From IMG/VR virus record IMGVR_UViG_3300037067_008064, positions 1 through 64,000 of that record: 64,000 nucleotides of DNA; one strand, 5' to 3'. This document shows positions 1,041 to 25,581 of this stretch, piece after piece. Within the stretch, counting starts at the first letter, position 1, and each line of letters starts with the position of its first letter. The notes below the pieces were generated by a model. The model saw only the letters and a program-made list of their open reading frames with translations, searched no databases and was not told the origin of the DNA. The stretch is from a virus. Its lineage: Duplodnaviria > Heunggongvirae > Uroviricota > Caudoviricetes. The position numbers were made by a program, and so were the translations under genes.

Positions 1041-1191
1041 ATGTGATAGAATTTTCATCTATCTTCTTAGGCTTGTTTTCATTGAGCCGGCCTTAAGTTT
1101 GACGGCCATTGGGTGAAAGATGGAGTACGATTCCATATATCCGGATTCACAGTCCGGCACTTTATCCATTTAAGTTACAATCACCATGTTG

Positions 1192-2796: not shown

Positions 2797-3054
2797 AAAT
2801 TAATTATAATATTACTGGTGCGACTTTTAGATTTCAATAGTTCTCATGTGCACTAAAACCTTCTGAGTGAAACTCGCCAATGCTGCAGACATTGTTTTAC
2901 CTATCATAACAACAAGTTTTGAGTAATATTATAATTGCTGATTTTGTAAGATTCGAACTTAACTTCCACTGTACAGCCGCGTACCGTGTTGAATGACGTG
3001 CCTCCTTTACACTACAAAATCAAAATAAAATTGAGAAAATTAATAAGAGGATTT

Positions 3055-3129
3055 CCAGTATTACTACTGTTTGATAGGACTTGAACCTATAACTGTTTGT
3101 TTAATAGACAAATGCGTTACCATTACGCG
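3055..3129 (-). tRNA. tRNA-like, unresolved (anticodon loop CTATTAA; acceptor does not pair)
   Basis: Good D-arm GCGT-AATGGTA-ACGC, anticodon stem TTTGT/ACAAA and T-arm ATAGGTTCAAGTCCTAT, but no 7-bp acceptor could be formed. Confidence 0.25.
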
Positions 3130-3161
3130 ACGATGAAACTCTTATAGTTACTACAATTTTG

Positions 3162-3236
3162 CTCCCCCGACGGGAGTTGAACCCGCTTGAATTCCTGAGT
3201 GACAGTCAGACGTCCTAGCCGCTAGACCTCAAGGGA
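3162..3236 (-). tRNA. tRNA-Asp (anticodon GTC)
   Basis: Canonical Asp anticodon loop CTGTCAC; acceptor TCCCTTG/CGGGGGA with two G-U pairs. Confidence 0.55.
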
Positions 3237-3242
3237 ATGTTG

Positions 3243-3321
3243 TGGGGAAGATAGGATTCGAACCTACAAGTGGTGTGACAGTTTTACAGACTGCTGAGCC
3301 AGCCAATTGCTCAACCTCCCC
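3243..3321 (-). tRNA. tRNA-Tyr (anticodon GTA), class II
   Basis: Acceptor GGGGAGG/CTTCCCC; anticodon loop CTGTAAA; long variable arm. Confidence 0.6.
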
Positions 3322-3356
3322 AAGTTAAAACTAAGAAAATTAAAAAGAATGTTTTT

Positions 3357-3430
3357 TGGTGCTTGATGCGGGAATTTAACCCGCGCCTATTGATTTGAAT
3401 TCAATTGCTCTAACGTAGAGCTAATTAAGC
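3357..3430 (-). tRNA. tRNA with anticodon TCA (reads UGA; opal-suppressor or Trp-UCA type), genomically encoded CCA
   Basis: GCTC..GAGC D-arm; anticodon arm ATTGA-ATTCAAA-TCAAT; T-arm GCGGGTTAAATTCCCGC; 3' end ...ATCAAGC-A-CCA. Confidence 0.5.
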
Positions 3431-3460
3431 GATGTAATCCTTTAAATCACTATAGTTTTG

Positions 3461-3534
3461 CGGATAAGGTGAGATTCGAACTCACATCATTTAGCTTAAC
3501 AGGCTAAAGTTTTACCAATTATTACTACCTATCC
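3461..3534 (-). tRNA. tRNA-Asn (anticodon GTT)
   Basis: Anticodon arm TTAGC-CTGTTAA-GCTAA; T-arm GTGAGTTCGAATCTCAC. Confidence 0.55.
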
Positions 3535-3538
3535 CGGT

Positions 3539-3744
3539 AACCCTCTCAAGGATTTGAACCTTGGTCCCCTTGATTACACCTTGCCTTTTCACTTCATGCG
3601 CAATCCATGAAACGTTAAAGGTTCATCTACCTTAGTTATTTAATTACCTTTCTAATATGCCTTACGTACAACATATTAGATACTTCTTTAAACTTCTAAA
3701 TTCCGGCATCAATCCGGACGCTCTAACCACTGAGCTAAGAGGGC
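3539..3744 (-). tRNA. split tRNA-Ser (anticodon TGA): 5' half 3702-3744 and 3' half 3539-3563, with a ~140-nt intervening sequence at the variable-arm position
   Basis: 5' half = GCCCTCT-TA-GCTCAGTGGTTAGAGC-G-TCCGG-ATTGATG-CCGGA. 3' half = CAAGG-TTCAAAT-CCTTG-AGAGGGT-T. The acceptor strands pair 7/7. The intervening sequence contains hairpins (CTAATATG...CATATTAG; TTCATG-GATTGCG-CATGAA). Confidence 0.45.
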
Positions 3745-3749
3745 ATTTG

Positions 3750-3820
3750 CGCTCATAAACAGATTCGAACTGATATCAAGTGGTTAACAGCCACCCGTTC
3801 TACCTTTGAACTATATAAGC
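3750..3820 (-). tRNA. tRNA-Asn (anticodon GTT), second copy
   Basis: Acceptor GCTTATA/TATGAGC; anticodon arm GGTGG-CTGTTAA-CCACT. Confidence 0.5.
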
Positions 3821-3972
3821 ATTTAAACAGAGAAAATTAGTATGAGCATTTTTTAAACTTCTTCCCCGAGTTTTGTTTTAAATAATGGTGGGGAAGGCTG
3901 GTTACGAGCCAACTATTTTACATTTTCAATTGTATTGTTTTACGATGAAACTCATTATATTACTACTGTTTG

Positions 3973-4045
3973 TGGAGCCTAAGGGCATCGAACCCTTGTC
4001 TGGAGAGTGCAAATCTCCTATTCTCGCCATTTTAACTAAGGCCCC
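3973..4045 (-). tRNA. tRNA-Ala (anticodon TGC)
   Basis: Anticodon arm GGAGA-TTTGCAC-TCTCC; T-arm AAGGGTTCGATGCCCTT. Confidence 0.55.
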
Positions 4046-4115
4046 ATTATTTGTTAATGCTAAGTGCAGCCCACCTACTTAGCTTTACTCCTTCTTGTAA
4101 AGAACATTAACATTG

Positions 4116-4362: not shown

Positions 4363-4483
4363 TCCATATTAAAATCTAATTTTATCGTACATTTTCTTCT
4401 ATCATACTTGACTAGAGCATCTTGCAGGTAGTCAGCCTACTGGCCTATAAAATTATTATGTGTCACAAAGAATTTGTACTCAG

Positions 4484-4567
4484 TGCACCCGGAGGGATTC
4501 GAACCCACGACTCTCGGTTTAAAAGACCGATACTCTATGCTTGCGCTGCCATCTGAGTTACGAGTGC
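4484..4567 (-). tRNA. tRNA-Lys (anticodon TTT) with an enlarged D-loop
   Basis: Acceptor GCACTCG/CGGGTGC; anticodon arm TCGGT-CTTTTAA-ACCGA; D-loop ~19 nt. Confidence 0.5.
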
Positions 4568-4573
4568 ATTAAT

Positions 4574-4634
4574 AATCTTTCTTAACTTTCTTTTATAGAT
4601 ACCTTTCAACGTAACATTAAAGTTAAGAAAGATT
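4574..4634. repeat. perfect 16-bp inverted repeat with 29-nt spacer
   Basis: AATCTTTCTTAACTTT ... AAAGTTAAGAAAGATT between tRNA-Lys and tRNA-Phe. Confidence 0.6.
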
Positions 4635-4673
4635 ATTTTAATTATTATACAACATGTCAAAGACCTTTTTAAT

Positions 4674-9246: not shown

Positions 9247-10077
9247 TTAATCAATAAAAGCATTTGTTGAATTACCAACTTCAGTTGAAATATGAATTTC
9301 ATGCCAACTAGGTAAATTAATTGTGTGGTGATCTGGGTGTTTGACTTTACCACGACCAAGTACTGTTGCACCACGTACTTGTTGTGAAAAACCTAATCTT
9401 TCTTCTGGTGATAAACTTTTATATTCAGATTCTGTAATTATTCTATCTCGTTTAACATAAACAGTTTCACCACCAAAACGAACAACTTCTTCAACAACAT
9501 GTGATGTGCCTCCACGACGGCTAATTGGTTCATTTTTATGTATGATAGTACTTTTATCTTCTTGAAAATTTACGGGCACAAAAAACCATTCACCTTGACG
9601 GATAAATCCTTTGGTTTTTCTTTTTTTCCATTCTTTAGTTTTTACTCCTTGGCGAATCATTGAAATGTTTACAGCTTTTGGTCTAAGAAGTGCAAAAGCT
9701 TCACGAATATTTTTTGCCATAGTTACACCAGCAACAAACCAGTGCATTTCATCACGACCAAGTAAAAGTCTTTCATCAAAAGTTTCATTTGGTTTACCGC
9801 GTTTAAAAATTTGACGTCCTCCTACCCAAGAACTATCTATTCTTGGGGCACGAATAAAAATTAACATTTGACGAAGTTTTGGGTCAAAATCTAAAACTTG
9901 TAAAGTTATTTCTGATTCATTAATATCGGGGTGTATGGTCATTGTAAAATGTTCACCTTGTTTATCATTTGTAACATTCATACGAATAACCCCATCACGT
10001 GCTAATGAACTTCCTTTACGGATAGTAACACGTGCTCCAATTTTTTCAAAACTTTTTCTGAGATTATCTCTATTCAT
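9247..10077 (-). CDS. hypothetical protein (two H-x-T-x motifs; possible 2H-phosphoesterase-like)
   Basis: Long ORF between the NADAR and PTH2 genes. Contains EHFTMTIHP and HPDHHTINLP, two HxTx motifs; the function assignment is speculative. Confidence 0.45.
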   Translation of the reverse strand: MNRDNLRKSFEKIGARVTIRKGSSLARDGVIRMNVTNDKQGEHFTMTIHPDINESEITLQVLDFDPKLRQMLIFIRAPRIDSSWVGGRQIFKRGKPNETFDERLLLGRDEMHWFVAGVTMAKNIREAFALLRPKAVNISMIRQGVKTKEWKKRKTKGFIRQGEWFFVPVNFQEDKSTIIHKNEPISRRGGTSHVVEEVVRFGGETVYVKRDRIITESEYKSLSPEERLGFSQQVRGATVLGRGKVKHPDHHTINLPSWHEIHISTEVGNSTNAFID

Positions 10078-19860: not shown

Positions 19861-19890
19861 AAAAAAAGGCTTAGAATTCTAAGCCTTTTA
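19861..19890. terminator. bidirectional intrinsic terminator
   Basis: AAAAAAAGGCTTAGAATTCTAAGCCTTTT sits between the convergent GIY-YIG (+) and Ro60-like (-) genes. Confidence 0.6.
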
Positions 19891-19910
19891 ATTTATAAAA
19901 TTTTAATTTA

Positions 19911-21614
19911 TTATATGTTAATTTGATTGATAGCTTTGATAACAACATTAGGATCTAATTCTACCTTTTTAGCGGTTTCATAAATATCTTTAGAGTAACC
20001 AAAGATACGGAATACTTTATTACCTGCTTTCATAACAGTTGGGCCGTAACCTACTATATTAACAAGGTAAATATATGGTGTACCATATTTAGCAGAATAT
20101 GCTTTAAGCATTCCTTCTACTCTTCCACCATCTTGTTCATCTGTTATAATGATAATACGGTCGAATTTTTCATTTGATCTTAAGAATAAGCTGAAAATTT
20201 GTGAATAATCAGTTCCGTGTCCAACACGACCATTATAACCCATGAAATGTTTCTTAAGAGTATTAATGGTATCATTTGGATTATAGCCAATAATTCTTTC
20301 ACAGCCTGATGCAAAGTGATAAACTGGTGAGTTCATAGCTTTGGTGAATGTTGCCGCAACAAGTGCAGCTTTTTCACATGGTCTTTTATTAATTGAACAT
20401 GCTTTTCCACCTTTTTCAATTTGGACGCCACTACCATATCCACCTTCCATTGAACCTGATGTATCAAATACAACGGCAGTTCTTCCTTCTGGGAATAATC
20501 CTACTAAGTTTGGAATTGAACGTTCATATGCAATGTCAAGAGCCTTTGCAACCTTTGACAAATATTTATTTGAGTTAAATTCAAGTAACATTATTTCTAA
20601 TGCTAAATCAATTTGATGTGGCCATACTAAAGATTTTTGTATGAACTTATCTTCTATTAAAAGATCACATGCGCTATCTACTAATTCAGCGTTATCAGTA
20701 TTAAGAATATTTCTCATATTTCTTAATAATGCAAGATAACCGATCTTTTTCTTTGCAATAAGTTCAGTGAAGTTTTCTGTCTTAAGTTCATTAAGTTTTT
20801 CTTCAGCTGCTTCTGATGTAAGTTCACCTGATTTAAAAGCTTCAGAAACTGTTTTACCAGCTTCAGTATTCTTGTCTTCAACAGTATTAAATTGCTTTAA
20901 TAAACCTAATACAAGAGCACGTAATGCAGAAATTCTTACAAATACTTTTCCTTCTTTTTCATATGATTCAGGTAGTTGAGCAGCATACTTTGTACCTTTT
21001 ACAGCTTTTTGATAATCTGCTATTTCAACTTCAATGAATCCATTTTTCTTTGATTCAATAGGGTGAACTAAGTTAACAACGTCAACTAAAGAAACACTTC
21101 TATTTTTTGCTTGATATTTAGCCAATTCATACATATCTGCATCTTCAATTGCAAGCGCAAATCCTTTCTTAATAGCATTTGGAATTGGGGCATTAGCTCC
21201 ATTCTTTGCTAGATAACATGCTAAAATTTCTAACATGTCATCAATACGATAGACAATACCACCAGCATTTTCTTTACGTGATCTTTTTGAGTAGAATTTC
21301 TTTCCTAACTCGTCACCTGCAAAATGCTTTAAAAGTTCAACAGCTCCTCTATGTGTAACTGTTCTTTGTCCAAAAACAGTACGGGCATAAATAAGAGCTT
21401 TAGCTGCAAAAAGCTTATTTTTCTTTGCAACTTCATTAAGGACTTGAGCAAAACGTATATCACGTTCTGATTCCTTTTCATAAAATGTGTTTTCTAAACC
21501 GGTGGCAAGGATTCCGATTAATTCGTTTTCTGGTTTTTGTGTAAAACCTGCGCCACCTTGATGTGTTACAGTTGGTTGAATTTCACTAACTGGTTTTTGA
21601 TTGTACTTTGCCAT
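19911..21614 (-). CDS. Ro60/TROVE-domain protein with C-terminal von Willebrand A (MIDAS) domain
   Basis: N-terminal VTHQGGAGF...TFYEKESE fits the TROVE start. C-terminal AVVFDTSGSM is a DxSxS MIDAS motif. AAAGGAGGT ribosome-binding site 7 nt before the ATG. Confidence 0.55.
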   Translation of the reverse strand: MAKYNQKPVSEIQPTVTHQGGAGFTQKPENELIGILATGLENTFYEKESERDIRFAQVLNEVAKKNKLFAAKALIYARTVFGQRTVTHRGAVELLKHFAGDELGKKFYSKRSRKENAGGIVYRIDDMLEILACYLAKNGANAPIPNAIKKGFALAIEDADMYELAKYQAKNRSVSLVDVVNLVHPIESKKNGFIEVEIADYQKAVKGTKYAAQLPESYEKEGKVFVRISALRALVLGLLKQFNTVEDKNTEAGKTVSEAFKSGELTSEAAEEKLNELKTENFTELIAKKKIGYLALLRNMRNILNTDNAELVDSACDLLIEDKFIQKSLVWPHQIDLALEIMLLEFNSNKYLSKVAKALDIAYERSIPNLVGLFPEGRTAVVFDTSGSMEGGYGSGVQIEKGGKACSINKRPCEKAALVAATFTKAMNSPVYHFASGCERIIGYNPNDTINTLKKHFMGYNGRVGHGTDYSQIFSLFLRSNEKFDRIIIITDEQDGGRVEGMLKAYSAKYGTPYIYLVNIVGYGPTVMKAGNKVFRIFGYSKDIYETAKKVELDPNVVIKAINQINI

Positions 21615-22023
21615 AATTTGACCTCCTTTTACTATTGGTTATTTTTATTTTACCCAAAGAAACTTTTTTACTACCGTTACCGGAGAAAGCTTCCCTGAAA
21701 TTTTAATTCAAGTTATATAATATTTTCACTGAGAAAATTGAAAGAGCTTGTGTTTGAAAACAGAATTTCGATGAAACTCTTATCGTTACTACAGTAATTT
21801 CTTTTTTAATTTAATGATACAAATATAATCTATATATTATCGCTTGAGACGAAAGATTTGTTAAGTAATGTTAAACTCTTCAAGTTCATTTAGATTAATA
21901 TTTTCCATTATAATAAAAATATAAAATGAAAAATTTCTTAAATTATCTTCAAAAAATTGATGTTTTAATTTTCTTTCTAATATTTTATTAGATGTATCAA
22001 TATAATTATCTAAACTATTCATA

Positions 22024-25062: not shown

Positions 25063-25329
25063 AATTGATATTTTTTTGATAGATTCATGAACCTCTATAT
25101 GTAGGTAAACGTCTTCCTTCGCTGTTTATCCTTGGGCCAATCTTCCACTCGAGTGTTACCCAACCTACTCATCATACTTTCACTAACCAATAGTTAATCA
25201 TATGTACTTAGCGTCTTCCAATTTCCGCCACAAAAAAATATCAAAGATCAATTGATTGAGAAAATTTAATTGAGTCTTTTGTTTATAGACCATAATACGA
25301 TGAAACTCAATTGTTACTACAATCATTTG

Positions 25330-25404
25330 TATAAGTGGTGAGATTCGAACTCACGAACGCTTGGCTCCAGACCAAGTCCATATAGCCATCTGTGGAACAC
25401 CTAT
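25330..25404 (-). tRNA. tRNA-like, anticodon TGG (Pro-like; C33)
   Basis: Acceptor ATAGGTG/CACTTAT; anticodon arm CTTGG-TCTGGAG-CCAAG. Confidence 0.35.
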
Positions 25405-25414
25405 ATTTTACTTG

Positions 25415-25487: not shown

Positions 25488-25581
25488 AGTTAAAACTGAG
25501 AATTTCAATAAGAGCATTTCTTTAGTCAGATTTTCAAAGTCAGATTGATACGATGTAACTCTATATTTTACTACAGTTTAG

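Follow-up and report, generated by a model that had tools for sequence, protein, structure and literature searches.

The window analysed here is a 64,000-nucleotide (nt) stretch of DNA, positions 1 to 64,000 of IMG/VR record IMGVR_UViG_3300037067_008064, from a phage of the class Caudoviricetes. A first-pass annotation reported five copies of an element of about 27 nt in this window and suggested, among other roles, that it could be part of a small RNA. Our analysis bears out this suggestion: within RNA units of 72–147 nt, the element supplies the 5' strand of a closing stem that covaries. It is close to certain that these units belong to a family of small structured RNAs, and comparative sequence data suggest that they are probably Y-RNA-like partners of the Ro60 protein encoded by the phage.

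The repeated element is one strand of a structured RNA

The window is AT-rich (G+C about 27%) and holds two minus-strand tRNA arrays, with 31 tRNAs called by ARAGORN and a few more detected by Rfam only. All five copies of the element, (U)GUAGUAA-N5-7-GAGUU(U/A)CAUCG, were located where they had been reported, and every copy is on the minus strand. The exact pattern ACGATGAAACTC-N4-9-TTACTACA has two matches in the window with 0.00 expected. The core GATGAAACTC-N7-TACTAC, with up to three mismatches, has four matches with 0.56 expected, a count reached by none of 100 shuffles; the spacer of the fifth copy is 6 nt. Alone, the 3' block AATTTTCTCA occurs at about the chance level (28 matches in the window, 26.5 expected) and is informative only when combined with the 5' block. 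Four copies had been described as lying directly 3' of a tRNA. This is correct for three of them, which begin 0–1 nt after tRNA-Asp (3' end 3161), tRNA-Ala (3972) and tRNA-Gln (25581), but not for copy 25298-25322, which is preceded by an uncalled tRNA-like sequence and lies 88 nt after tRNA-Leu. The remaining copy is upstream of the open reading frame (ORF) at 19911-21614.

On the minus strand, a partner block, CUC-NNNN-AAUUUUCU-Ynnnnn, follows each copy 20–110 nt downstream. The CUCNNNN of this block complements the element's variable NNNNGAG (AUAAGAG/CUCUUAU, AAUUGAG/CUCAAUU, AUGAG/CUCAU), and the final bases of the block complement those just 5' of GUAG (UUG/CAA, CAG/CUG, CUG/CAG). The earlier remark that the element has no obvious hairpin is accurate locally; at long range, however, the element is one strand of two stems. 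Minimum free energy (MFE) folds, computed independently for each of the five units, gave one common architecture. The paired RNA ends form an outer stem (P1) of six to seven variable pairs. Inward of P1 lie a bulged U and an invariant AG:CU step, then an internal loop, asymmetric with UAA facing AAUUUU, that leads to an inner stem (P2) of about eight pairs with GAG:CUC at its end. Beyond P2 lie a conserved single strand, UU(U/A)C(A/U)UCG, and a variable head. Some heads are short A-rich loops; others are tRNA-like bodies that have D, anticodon-like and T arms but lack an acceptor stem. The RNAs are about 70–150 nt long overall.

Compensatory changes support the RNA structure

Pairing was examined in a collection of 89 unique units from all loci, of which 38 have a T-arm-like hairpin and half have no tRNA-like part at all. 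An initial pairing statistic was dropped as partly circular, the partner having been picked by its pairing. In a procedure-matched null, the partner for a 5' half was sought in the downstream region of a different unit; 12 or more of 14 pairs then formed in 6.8% of the swapped combinations, compared with 56% of true units. We also made an ungapped alignment of 28 units with identical spacing, the register being set by the conserved blocks. Both sides had changed in 14 of the 17 pairs and 89.1% of cells were paired, as against 74.4% after shuffling and at most 50.6% after sliding; none of 500 shuffles attained any of the observed measures. An alignment of 106 distinct sequences to a covariance model of the closure (model R1) contained compensatory changes in all 17 pairs, with 89.6% of cells paired (66.7% shuffled, at most 52.8% slid). 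Because this alignment was fitted to the model, it leans towards structure. The stems tolerate G-U pairs, and even the near-invariant steps covary: AUAG replaces GUAG where CUU replaces CUC, and in 21 sequences G:C takes the place of A:U in the AG:CU step. As far as comparative analysis reaches, these pairing results together establish the structure at the RNA level. Within the window, units 1 and 2 (Table 1) differ by compensatory changes at ATGAG/CTCAT and ACAG/CUGU.

Model R1 under-scores units with long inserts, anchoring unit 1 wrongly on an internal GUAGUAA hairpin and missing unit 2, so the census numbers given below are lower bounds. Its top match in the window is unit 3 (61 bits, E value 4e-13); units 5 and 4 score 43 bits (E 2e-8) and 28 bits (E 1e-4). 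The covariance model of the closure gave no further convincing copy anywhere in the 64 kb.

The RNA units are linked to Ro60 genes

The product of ORF 19911-21614 is a genuine Ro60, with a TROVE HEAT-repeat ring and a vWA/MIDAS domain. Its Pfam TROVE match scores 21.5 bits, just below the cut-off of 23, and its homologs have precomputed Pfam TROVE (PF05731) matches. A phmmer search of the PDB found Ro60 of Thermus phage phiLo (9KOP/9L5Y; E 8e-15). With an AlphaFold 2 (AF2) model (predicted local distance difference test score, pLDDT, 76.5), the top 13 Foldseek matches in the PDB were all Ro60/Rsr at full length, among them phage, Xenopus, human and Deinococcus Ro60 (E 9e-15 to 3e-10), and thereafter only vWA domains were matched. 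The MIDAS motif DxSxS (D384/S386/S388) is invariant in 20 homologs. When the single Ro60 protein was used as query against viral contigs no relative was confirmed; an alignment-based search did find loci. Homologs of the protein number more than 700 (the top 120 with about 58–74% identity), on contigs of up to 405 kb.

Three of the first four Ro60 contexts had a unit 180–450 nt upstream on the same strand. We searched 94 distinct Ro60 loci (157 fetched; 1.02 Mb, both strands) with model R1 at E ≤ 0.01. All 112 matches were on the Ro60 strand and none was inside the Ro60 gene. At least one match was present at 80 of the 94 loci, and at 58 a match ended within 1 kb upstream of Ro60. This linkage persists to about 45% protein identity, the Ro60 clades spanning 44–100% identity. 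Orthologs of unit 5 are found upstream of Ro60 at loci L015/16, L017/18 and L020. The minimal form accounts for 23 of 37 Ro60-proximal units, and a tRNA head is more frequent among units located elsewhere. Y RNAs of bacteria and phages lie within 4 kb of Ro60, are encoded on the same strand and have tRNA-like domains (PMC4201824); the units likewise lie near Ro60 genes on the Ro60 strand. They also have the build of a Y RNA, whose paired ends form a long stem with a bulged helix and lead on to a large loop or a second module, in about 80–130 nt. The first-pass annotation had proposed a binding test with the Ro60-like product, and the comparative data favour this same partner.

An exact-pattern scan of IMG/VR returned 14 contig stretches, within which fuzzy matching added about 25 copies. 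Nearly all of these are in phage tRNA arrays on the tRNA strand, and the 3' partner block is common to all. L008, which was retrieved through the RNA motif alone, and Ro60 locus L128 are the same contig. Megablast of 2900-4100 against deposited phages gave no match, and there was no strict regular-expression match at the Ro60 locus (31% identity) of the 635-kb uncultured phage LR745206. A degenerate 5' pattern was run on 185,579 cellular genomes, where thousands of chance matches are expected from its information content, and none of the 120 matches listed had the bipartite structure. Over positions 1-30000, Rfam 15 at the gathering threshold and at E ≤ 10 gave only the partial tRNA match inside unit 1. 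We found no description of this RNA family in the literature that could be searched; the nearest reports are a mention of ROT/TROVE proteins in some jumbo phages (PMC7824862), the work on phage phiLo (PMC12135203) and the suggestion of Y RNAs beside gp130 of phage Bas63 (PMC11482910). A hammerhead or hepatitis delta virus (HDV)-like ribozyme was considered, prompted by GAUGAAAC on the plus strand and by the location 3' of tRNAs, and was rejected: the strand is wrong, no core matches and there is no Rfam match.

The Ro60 leader carries a permuted copy of the stem

For 97 distinct loci, the 80 nt that precede the Ro60 start were aligned by eye. About 63 of these leaders contain a conserved hairpin, (A)AUUCU-stem-loop-stem-U-AG-UAA, which ends 0–23 nt before the AUG, either just before the Shine–Dalgarno (SD) sequence or, where an SD is absent, directly on the AUG. 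The hairpin consists of P1, the bulged U, AG:CU and the flanking loop residues, with the far end closed and no P2, and is thus a circular permutation of the unit's outer stem. Its stem covaries (UUGAGC/GCUCAA, UUAGGAC/GUCCUAA, UUAACUC/GAGUUAA) and reads CUAA/UUAG in the clade at 50% identity. When leaders were anchored by motif only, UAGU(A/U)A was found within 30 nt of the start in 62 of the 97, and in 59 of these 62 a hairpin of at least four contiguous pairs starts right after UUCU. Six contiguous pairs formed in 53% of cases compared with 5.8% when arms were swapped, and the leader pattern has a background rate of 0.004 per 80 nt. Two such hairpins, A and B (Table 1), stand in tandem in the window and are the only good matches to the pattern in the 64 kb on either strand. 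Changes in the stem of hairpin A are compensatory, because its L016 ortholog reads CUC-GAAA-GAG.

In eight leaders (L023, L048, L049, L102, L105, L111, L112 and L172) the hairpin lies 0–3 nt before the AUG and no SD is visible, and initiation there must occur right at the UAGUAA tail of the hairpin. Target mimicry over a protein's own SD or AUG is known for ribosomal proteins S8, L1 and S15, for ThrRS and for RegA and gp32 of phage T4. These autogenous systems are established, whereas the case of the Ro60 leader is read from sequence; we propose tentatively, at somewhat less than even confidence, that the leader hairpin may mediate autogenous repression of Ro60. To our knowledge, autogenous repression by target mimicry has not been described for any Ro60.

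Units of the window and neighbouring RNAs

Table 1. Positions of the RNA units, the leader hairpins and the Ro60 gene in the window. Ranges with descending numbers run 5' to 3' on the minus strand.
Feature	Position	Strand	Remarks
Unit 1	3027..3160	-	complete RNA unit; element copy 3130-3156
Unit 1, P1	5' strand 3160-3154; 3' strand 3033-3027	-	
Unit 1, bulge and AG:CU step	bulged U 3153; AG 3152-3151; CU 3035-3034	-	
Unit 1, internal loop	UAA 3150-3148; AAUUUU 3041-3036	-	
Unit 1, P2	5' strand 3147-3139; 3' strand 3049-3042	-	
Unit 1, UUUCAUCG	3138-3131	-	single strand between P2 and tRNA-like body
Unit 1, tRNA-like body	3131-3073	-	D, anticodon-like and T arms; acceptor stem absent
Unit 1, GUAA-capped hairpin	3069-3056	-	
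Unit 2	3825..3971	-	5' half 3971-3943; element copy 3942-3967; 96-nt insert with two hairpins; between tRNA-Ala (3' end 3972) and tRNA-Asn (5' end 3820), gaps 0 and 4 nt
Unit 2, 3' side	P2 3846-3839; AAUUUU 3838-3833; CU 3832-3831; P1 3830-3825	-	
Unit 3	25253..25326	-	minimal unit, 23-nt insert; element copy 25298-25322
Unit 3, stems	P1 25325-25320 with 25258-25253; P2 25313-25306 with 25274-25267	-	
Unit 4	25491..25580	-	36-nt insert; variant UUACAUCG; between tRNA-Gln (3' end 25581) and tRNA-Leu (5' end 25487), gaps 1 and 5 nt
Unit 5	21726..21797	-	minimal unit upstream of Ro60 gene; 3' end 112 nt before ATG
Unit 5, stems	P1 21797-21792 with 21731-21726; P2 21785-21777 with 21746-21740	-	
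Leader hairpin A	21668..21688	-	UUUCU-CCG-GUAA-CGG-U-AG-UAA; circularly permuted P1 mimic
Leader hairpin B	21629..21662	-	UUUCU-UUGG-loop-CCAA-U-AG-UAA; P1 mimic; 2 nt before SD GGAGG (21626-21622), 14 nt before ATG (21614-21612)
Ro60 ortholog	19911..21614	-	567 amino acids; TROVE ring and vWA/MIDAS; putative protein partner

The MFE fold of unit 1 contains P1, P2 and the three tRNA arms (z = -2.9). The Rfam tRNA model matches this unit only in part (model positions 7-64 on 3131-3073, 47 bits) and ARAGORN makes no tRNA call there. A tRNA would have a seven-pair acceptor stem with a discriminator/CCA end and a conserved anticodon. In unit 1, by contrast, the 5' UUCAUCG has no complementary 3' strand, and the anticodon-like loop is CUAUUAA where the close ortholog at L015 has CUCUUAA. 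On this comparison, the head is not a decoding tRNA, because the acceptor stem is missing and the anticodon-like loop differs in a close ortholog. A second conserved block noted earlier after two copies of the element (TAATGGT...GTCTATTAAACAAA) turns out to belong to the tRNA-like body of unit 1, where it forms the D-loop and the anticodon-like arm, and the version of it in unit 3 looks like an internally deleted remnant of such a body.

Right after unit 1, the segment 2945-3025 (minus strand; UUGUAGUGUAAAGGAGGCACGUCAUUC...AAGUUCGAAUCUU) is unscored by the model. Its element-like GUAGUG start and its T-arm-like hairpin could mark a diverged sixth unit or some other tRNA-like RNA. Between tRNA-Leu and unit 3, the sequence at 25335-25413 (minus strand) is tRNA-like and is called by neither ARAGORN nor Rfam; its T arm (GUGAGUUCGAAUCUCAC) is good, but its anticodon loop, UCUGGAG, is unusual. 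In the stretches 4483-4567 and 4570-4640 (minus strand), a tRNA-Lys(UUU)-like gene has a normal acceptor stem (GCACUCG/CGGGUGC) and a much enlarged D-loop; ARAGORN misses it, Rfam matches it in part (positions 10-63, 31 bits), and it is preceded by a long near-perfect hairpin, UAAUCUUUCUUAACUUU...AAAGUUAAGAAAGAUUA. Full-length Rfam tRNAs unreported by ARAGORN are present at 3360-3430 and 1112-1184 (minus strand; 62 and 49 bits). Just upstream of unit 5 there is a promoter-like site at 21864-21836 (minus strand), which is a consensus match only, and a terminator scan around unit 5 found none on the strand of the unit.

Other features were seen around the Ro60 genes. Right after the Ro60 stop in the window, 19862-19914 (minus strand) gives a sub-threshold Rfam STnc40 match (33 bits, gathering threshold 45), which is probably just a terminator-like hairpin. 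At L017 (about 9640-9700) and L020 (about 9880-9960), a promoter-like TTGAAA...TATAAT followed by a G+C hairpin with a T-run lies between the unit and Ro60, which suggests a separate short transcript or an attenuator ahead of Ro60. In L015, L017, L019 and L020, Ro60 is followed by a syntenic dCMP deaminase and NAD-salvage set (NAD synthase, isochorismatase/nicotinamidase and NAPRTase), and thioredoxin is often upstream of Ro60 in these same loci. GOLLD RNA (RF02032) is found in two distant clade members, about 2 kb upstream of Ro60 among tRNAs and Y-like units (L162 3519-3933, 281 bits; L167 3913-4328, 288 bits). A phage-encoded transfer-messenger RNA (tmRNA) and a permuted tmRNA also occur in tRNA/Ro60 neighbourhoods (L144 8470-8745; L093 2993-3214).

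Comparison with known Ro60-associated RNAs

YrlA (Chen et al. 2014, PMC4201824) resembles the units in being small, near Ro60, on the same strand and modular, with an end-paired stem and a tRNA-like domain; several YrlA RNAs can occur per genome and some are found in phages (PMC4201824). However, the YrlA motif GNCGAAN0-1G is absent from the units, which instead have G-U-AG-UAA and UUNCNUCG. CGAA occurs in the window units only incidentally, in unit 5, and the conserved 5' blocks are GUAGUAA and GAGUU(U/A)C(A/U)UCG. The arrangement also differs, since the end stem of YrlA replaces the anticodon stem and its order is T arm, acceptor-like stem and D arm, whereas in the units the closure replaces the acceptor stem and the D, anticodon-like and T arms follow the order of a tRNA. 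The many units with no tRNA-like part are a further difference from YrlA. In function and genomic setting the family is like the Y RNAs of bacteria and phages, but it is not a YrlA. Yrn1 of Deinococcus radiodurans is closer in arm order, with a T-arm-like hairpin and an anticodon-like arm in tRNA order and a Ro60-binding stem formed from the RNA ends (PMC4201824). On the other hand, no sequence similarity to Yrn1 is established, and Yrn1 is not within tRNA arrays. The Ro60–Y RNA–PNPase (RYPER) machine of Deinococcus provides the tether logic that we propose, and a link to PNPase in the present phage would be by analogy.

The closest solved homolog of the Ro60 studied here is also from a phage. 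Ro60 of Thermus phage phiLo binds two Y-like RNAs encoded upstream of its own gene, Yrl1 and Yrl2, and assembles with host PNPase (PMC12135203; PDB 9KOP, 9L5Y). The phiLo system differs in that CGAA in an internal bulge is recognised, there are two RNAs with no copies in tRNA arrays, and a leader mimic is not reported. Metazoan Y RNAs (Stein et al. 2005, cited through PMC4201824) have a terminal stem, a single bulged 5'-strand pyrimidine, two pairs, an asymmetric loop and an upper stem, much as in the units. They carry GGUCCGA where the units have GUAGUAA, and the units have no oligo-U La site and no match to Rfam Y_RNA. In coliphage Bas63, whose Ro60-like gp130 counters the Ppl defence, it has been speculated that some of the 'tRNA genes' beside gp130 are Y RNAs (PMC11482910). 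Bas63 belongs to a different phage group, and no RNA motif or structure has been defined there.

Alternative explanations

Several points weigh against the view that the units are Ro60 partners read through P1. No match to the model is found in the 6–10 kb flanks of 14 of the 94 Ro60 loci, some RNA-bearing contigs (fragments) have no visible Ro60 gene, and about one third of Ro60 leaders have no hairpin. The published Ro60 motifs (GNCGAAN0-1G of YrlA, CGAA of phiLo Yrl and GGUCCGA of animals) are absent, and no Rfam Y RNA or YrlA model matches the units. The larger alignment is model-fitted, for which the slid and shuffled controls are only a partial remedy. The block contacted by Ro60 could be P1 and the bulge or UUNCNUCG, which has a YCG core as in known motifs. 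It could also be that a different protein binds the P1-type site, including the copy in the leader.

An alternative that dispenses with Ro60 is that the units are a spacer or processing module of tRNA arrays, with the closure serving as substrate or guide for RNase III, RNase E or a phage nuclease and organising the maturation or stability of polycistronic tRNAs. A tRNA lies within 10 nt on at least one side of 22 of the 89 unique units and on both sides of 9, tRNAs abut both sides of window units 2 and 4, and the contigs retrieved by motif alone are tRNA arrays. Even so we consider this unlikely. Most units have no tRNA next to them, minimal units concentrate in the 1 kb upstream of Ro60, the great majority of Ro60 loci carry a same-strand RNA, and the Ro60 leader has its own copy of the stem. 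Nor would a mere processing signal require the conserved UAA/AAUUUU loop and UUNCNUCG strand. The processing role suggested in the first-pass annotation survives in a weak sense only, in that the ends of array units probably come from processing of the abutting tRNAs.

The units might instead be cis-acting leader elements, attenuator- or riboswitch-like, for the downstream gene, with the array copies as by-products. Unit 5 and many of its orthologs are indeed in the 5' region of a Ro60 gene, and a T-run hairpin follows the unit in L017 and L020. We regard this as quite improbable, however, given that four of the five window copies and many others are tRNA-flanked and have no ORF that they could control. 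In some genomes a terminator separates the unit from Ro60, which points to an independent small RNA, and variable heads that include tRNA-like bodies are unlike a single ligand pocket.

Two readings at the DNA level fare considerably worse. Selfish DNA, either an insertion resembling a miniature inverted-repeat transposable element (MITE) with terminal inverted repeats or a homing-endonuclease site among tRNA genes, would account for several dispersed copies per genome, for imperfect inverted termini and for the HNH/NUMOD genes near some Ro60 loci. The terminal arms are, however, the variable, covarying part of the units rather than the conserved one and tolerate G-U pairs, and all 112 matches have a single orientation. 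Flanks and inserts vary among copies, the inserts being wholly different, and target-site duplications were not seen at the window copies; the endonuclease target proposed earlier is accordingly set aside as barely plausible. Equally hard to sustain is a DNA-level transcription signal, that is, a phage-specific promoter or terminator repeated around tRNA genes. A conserved intergenic block of about 27 nt in an AT-rich phage could be such a signal and some P1 3' strands enter U-rich sequence, but the centre is variable in length and covaries with a distant partner. No G+C hairpin with a T-run accompanies the element, which counts against the termination signal suggested at first, and the scan around unit 5 gave none on that strand; the element is also unlike the promoter-like motifs that the first-pass annotation found in the window. 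It is scarcely credible that the units are tRNA pseudogenes in decay that have no function themselves, since despite the T-arm-like hairpins and the tRNA match in unit 1, the conserved part is a non-tRNA closure with compensatory change across more than 100 diverged sequences, and half of the units have no tRNA-like part.

Proposed mechanism and significance

If the units are Y-RNA-like partners of Ro60, those embedded in arrays would be freed by RNase P and 3'-end processing of the abutting tRNAs, and those adjacent to Ro60 would be transcribed together with the Ro60 gene or just ahead of it. We infer binding of the units by Ro60 from the linkage and the leader mimic. Ro60 would dock on the module of P1, bulged U and loop, a placement suggested by the same two features and by the likeness to animal Y RNAs in their lower stem. 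A second factor, for instance a host exonuclease like PNPase or tRNA-handling enzymes, might be recruited or gated by the head together with the UUNCNUCG strand, by analogy with the Ro60–Y RNA–PNPase complexes of Deinococcus and phage phiLo (PMC4201824, PMC12135203). The phage would hold a panel of Ro60 ribonucleoproteins (RNPs) differing in head. Ro60 in excess of its RNA partners would bind the P1-mimic hairpins overlapping its own SD/AUG, and its translation would be repressed.

A wider and more speculative picture, which we hold at rather less than even odds, is that a large clade of jumbo phages makes a panel of Y-like RNAs from its arrays by tRNA processing, with one Ro60 docking stem and interchangeable heads (tRNA-like or A-rich). 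Ro60 would gauge the supply of these RNAs through the permuted stem on its own SD/AUG, and the tRNA-shaped heads might direct the RNP to conflicts that target tRNAs, for example to repair damage by host anticodon nucleases or to protect against it. If this is true, it would give Ro60 its first described autoregulatory circuit and a recognition code distinct from the CGAA/GGUCCGA type.

Ro60–Y RNA particles are conserved from bacteria to humans, but bacterial and phage Y RNAs are hard to find; the one existing model is of the YrlA type, and for many Ro60 genes no partner RNA is known. The family described here supplies more than 100 diverged examples with clean covariation and a different conserved docking motif, and a minimal form of about 70 nt beside tRNA-headed forms, plus a predicted mRNA-leader mimic. 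The model could seed a new RNA family for annotation, and these loci should not be labelled tRNA pseudogenes. With it, one can test which RNA feature is read by Ro60, whether the level of Ro60 is set by titration against its RNAs, and why Ro60 is present in phages with large tRNA arrays.

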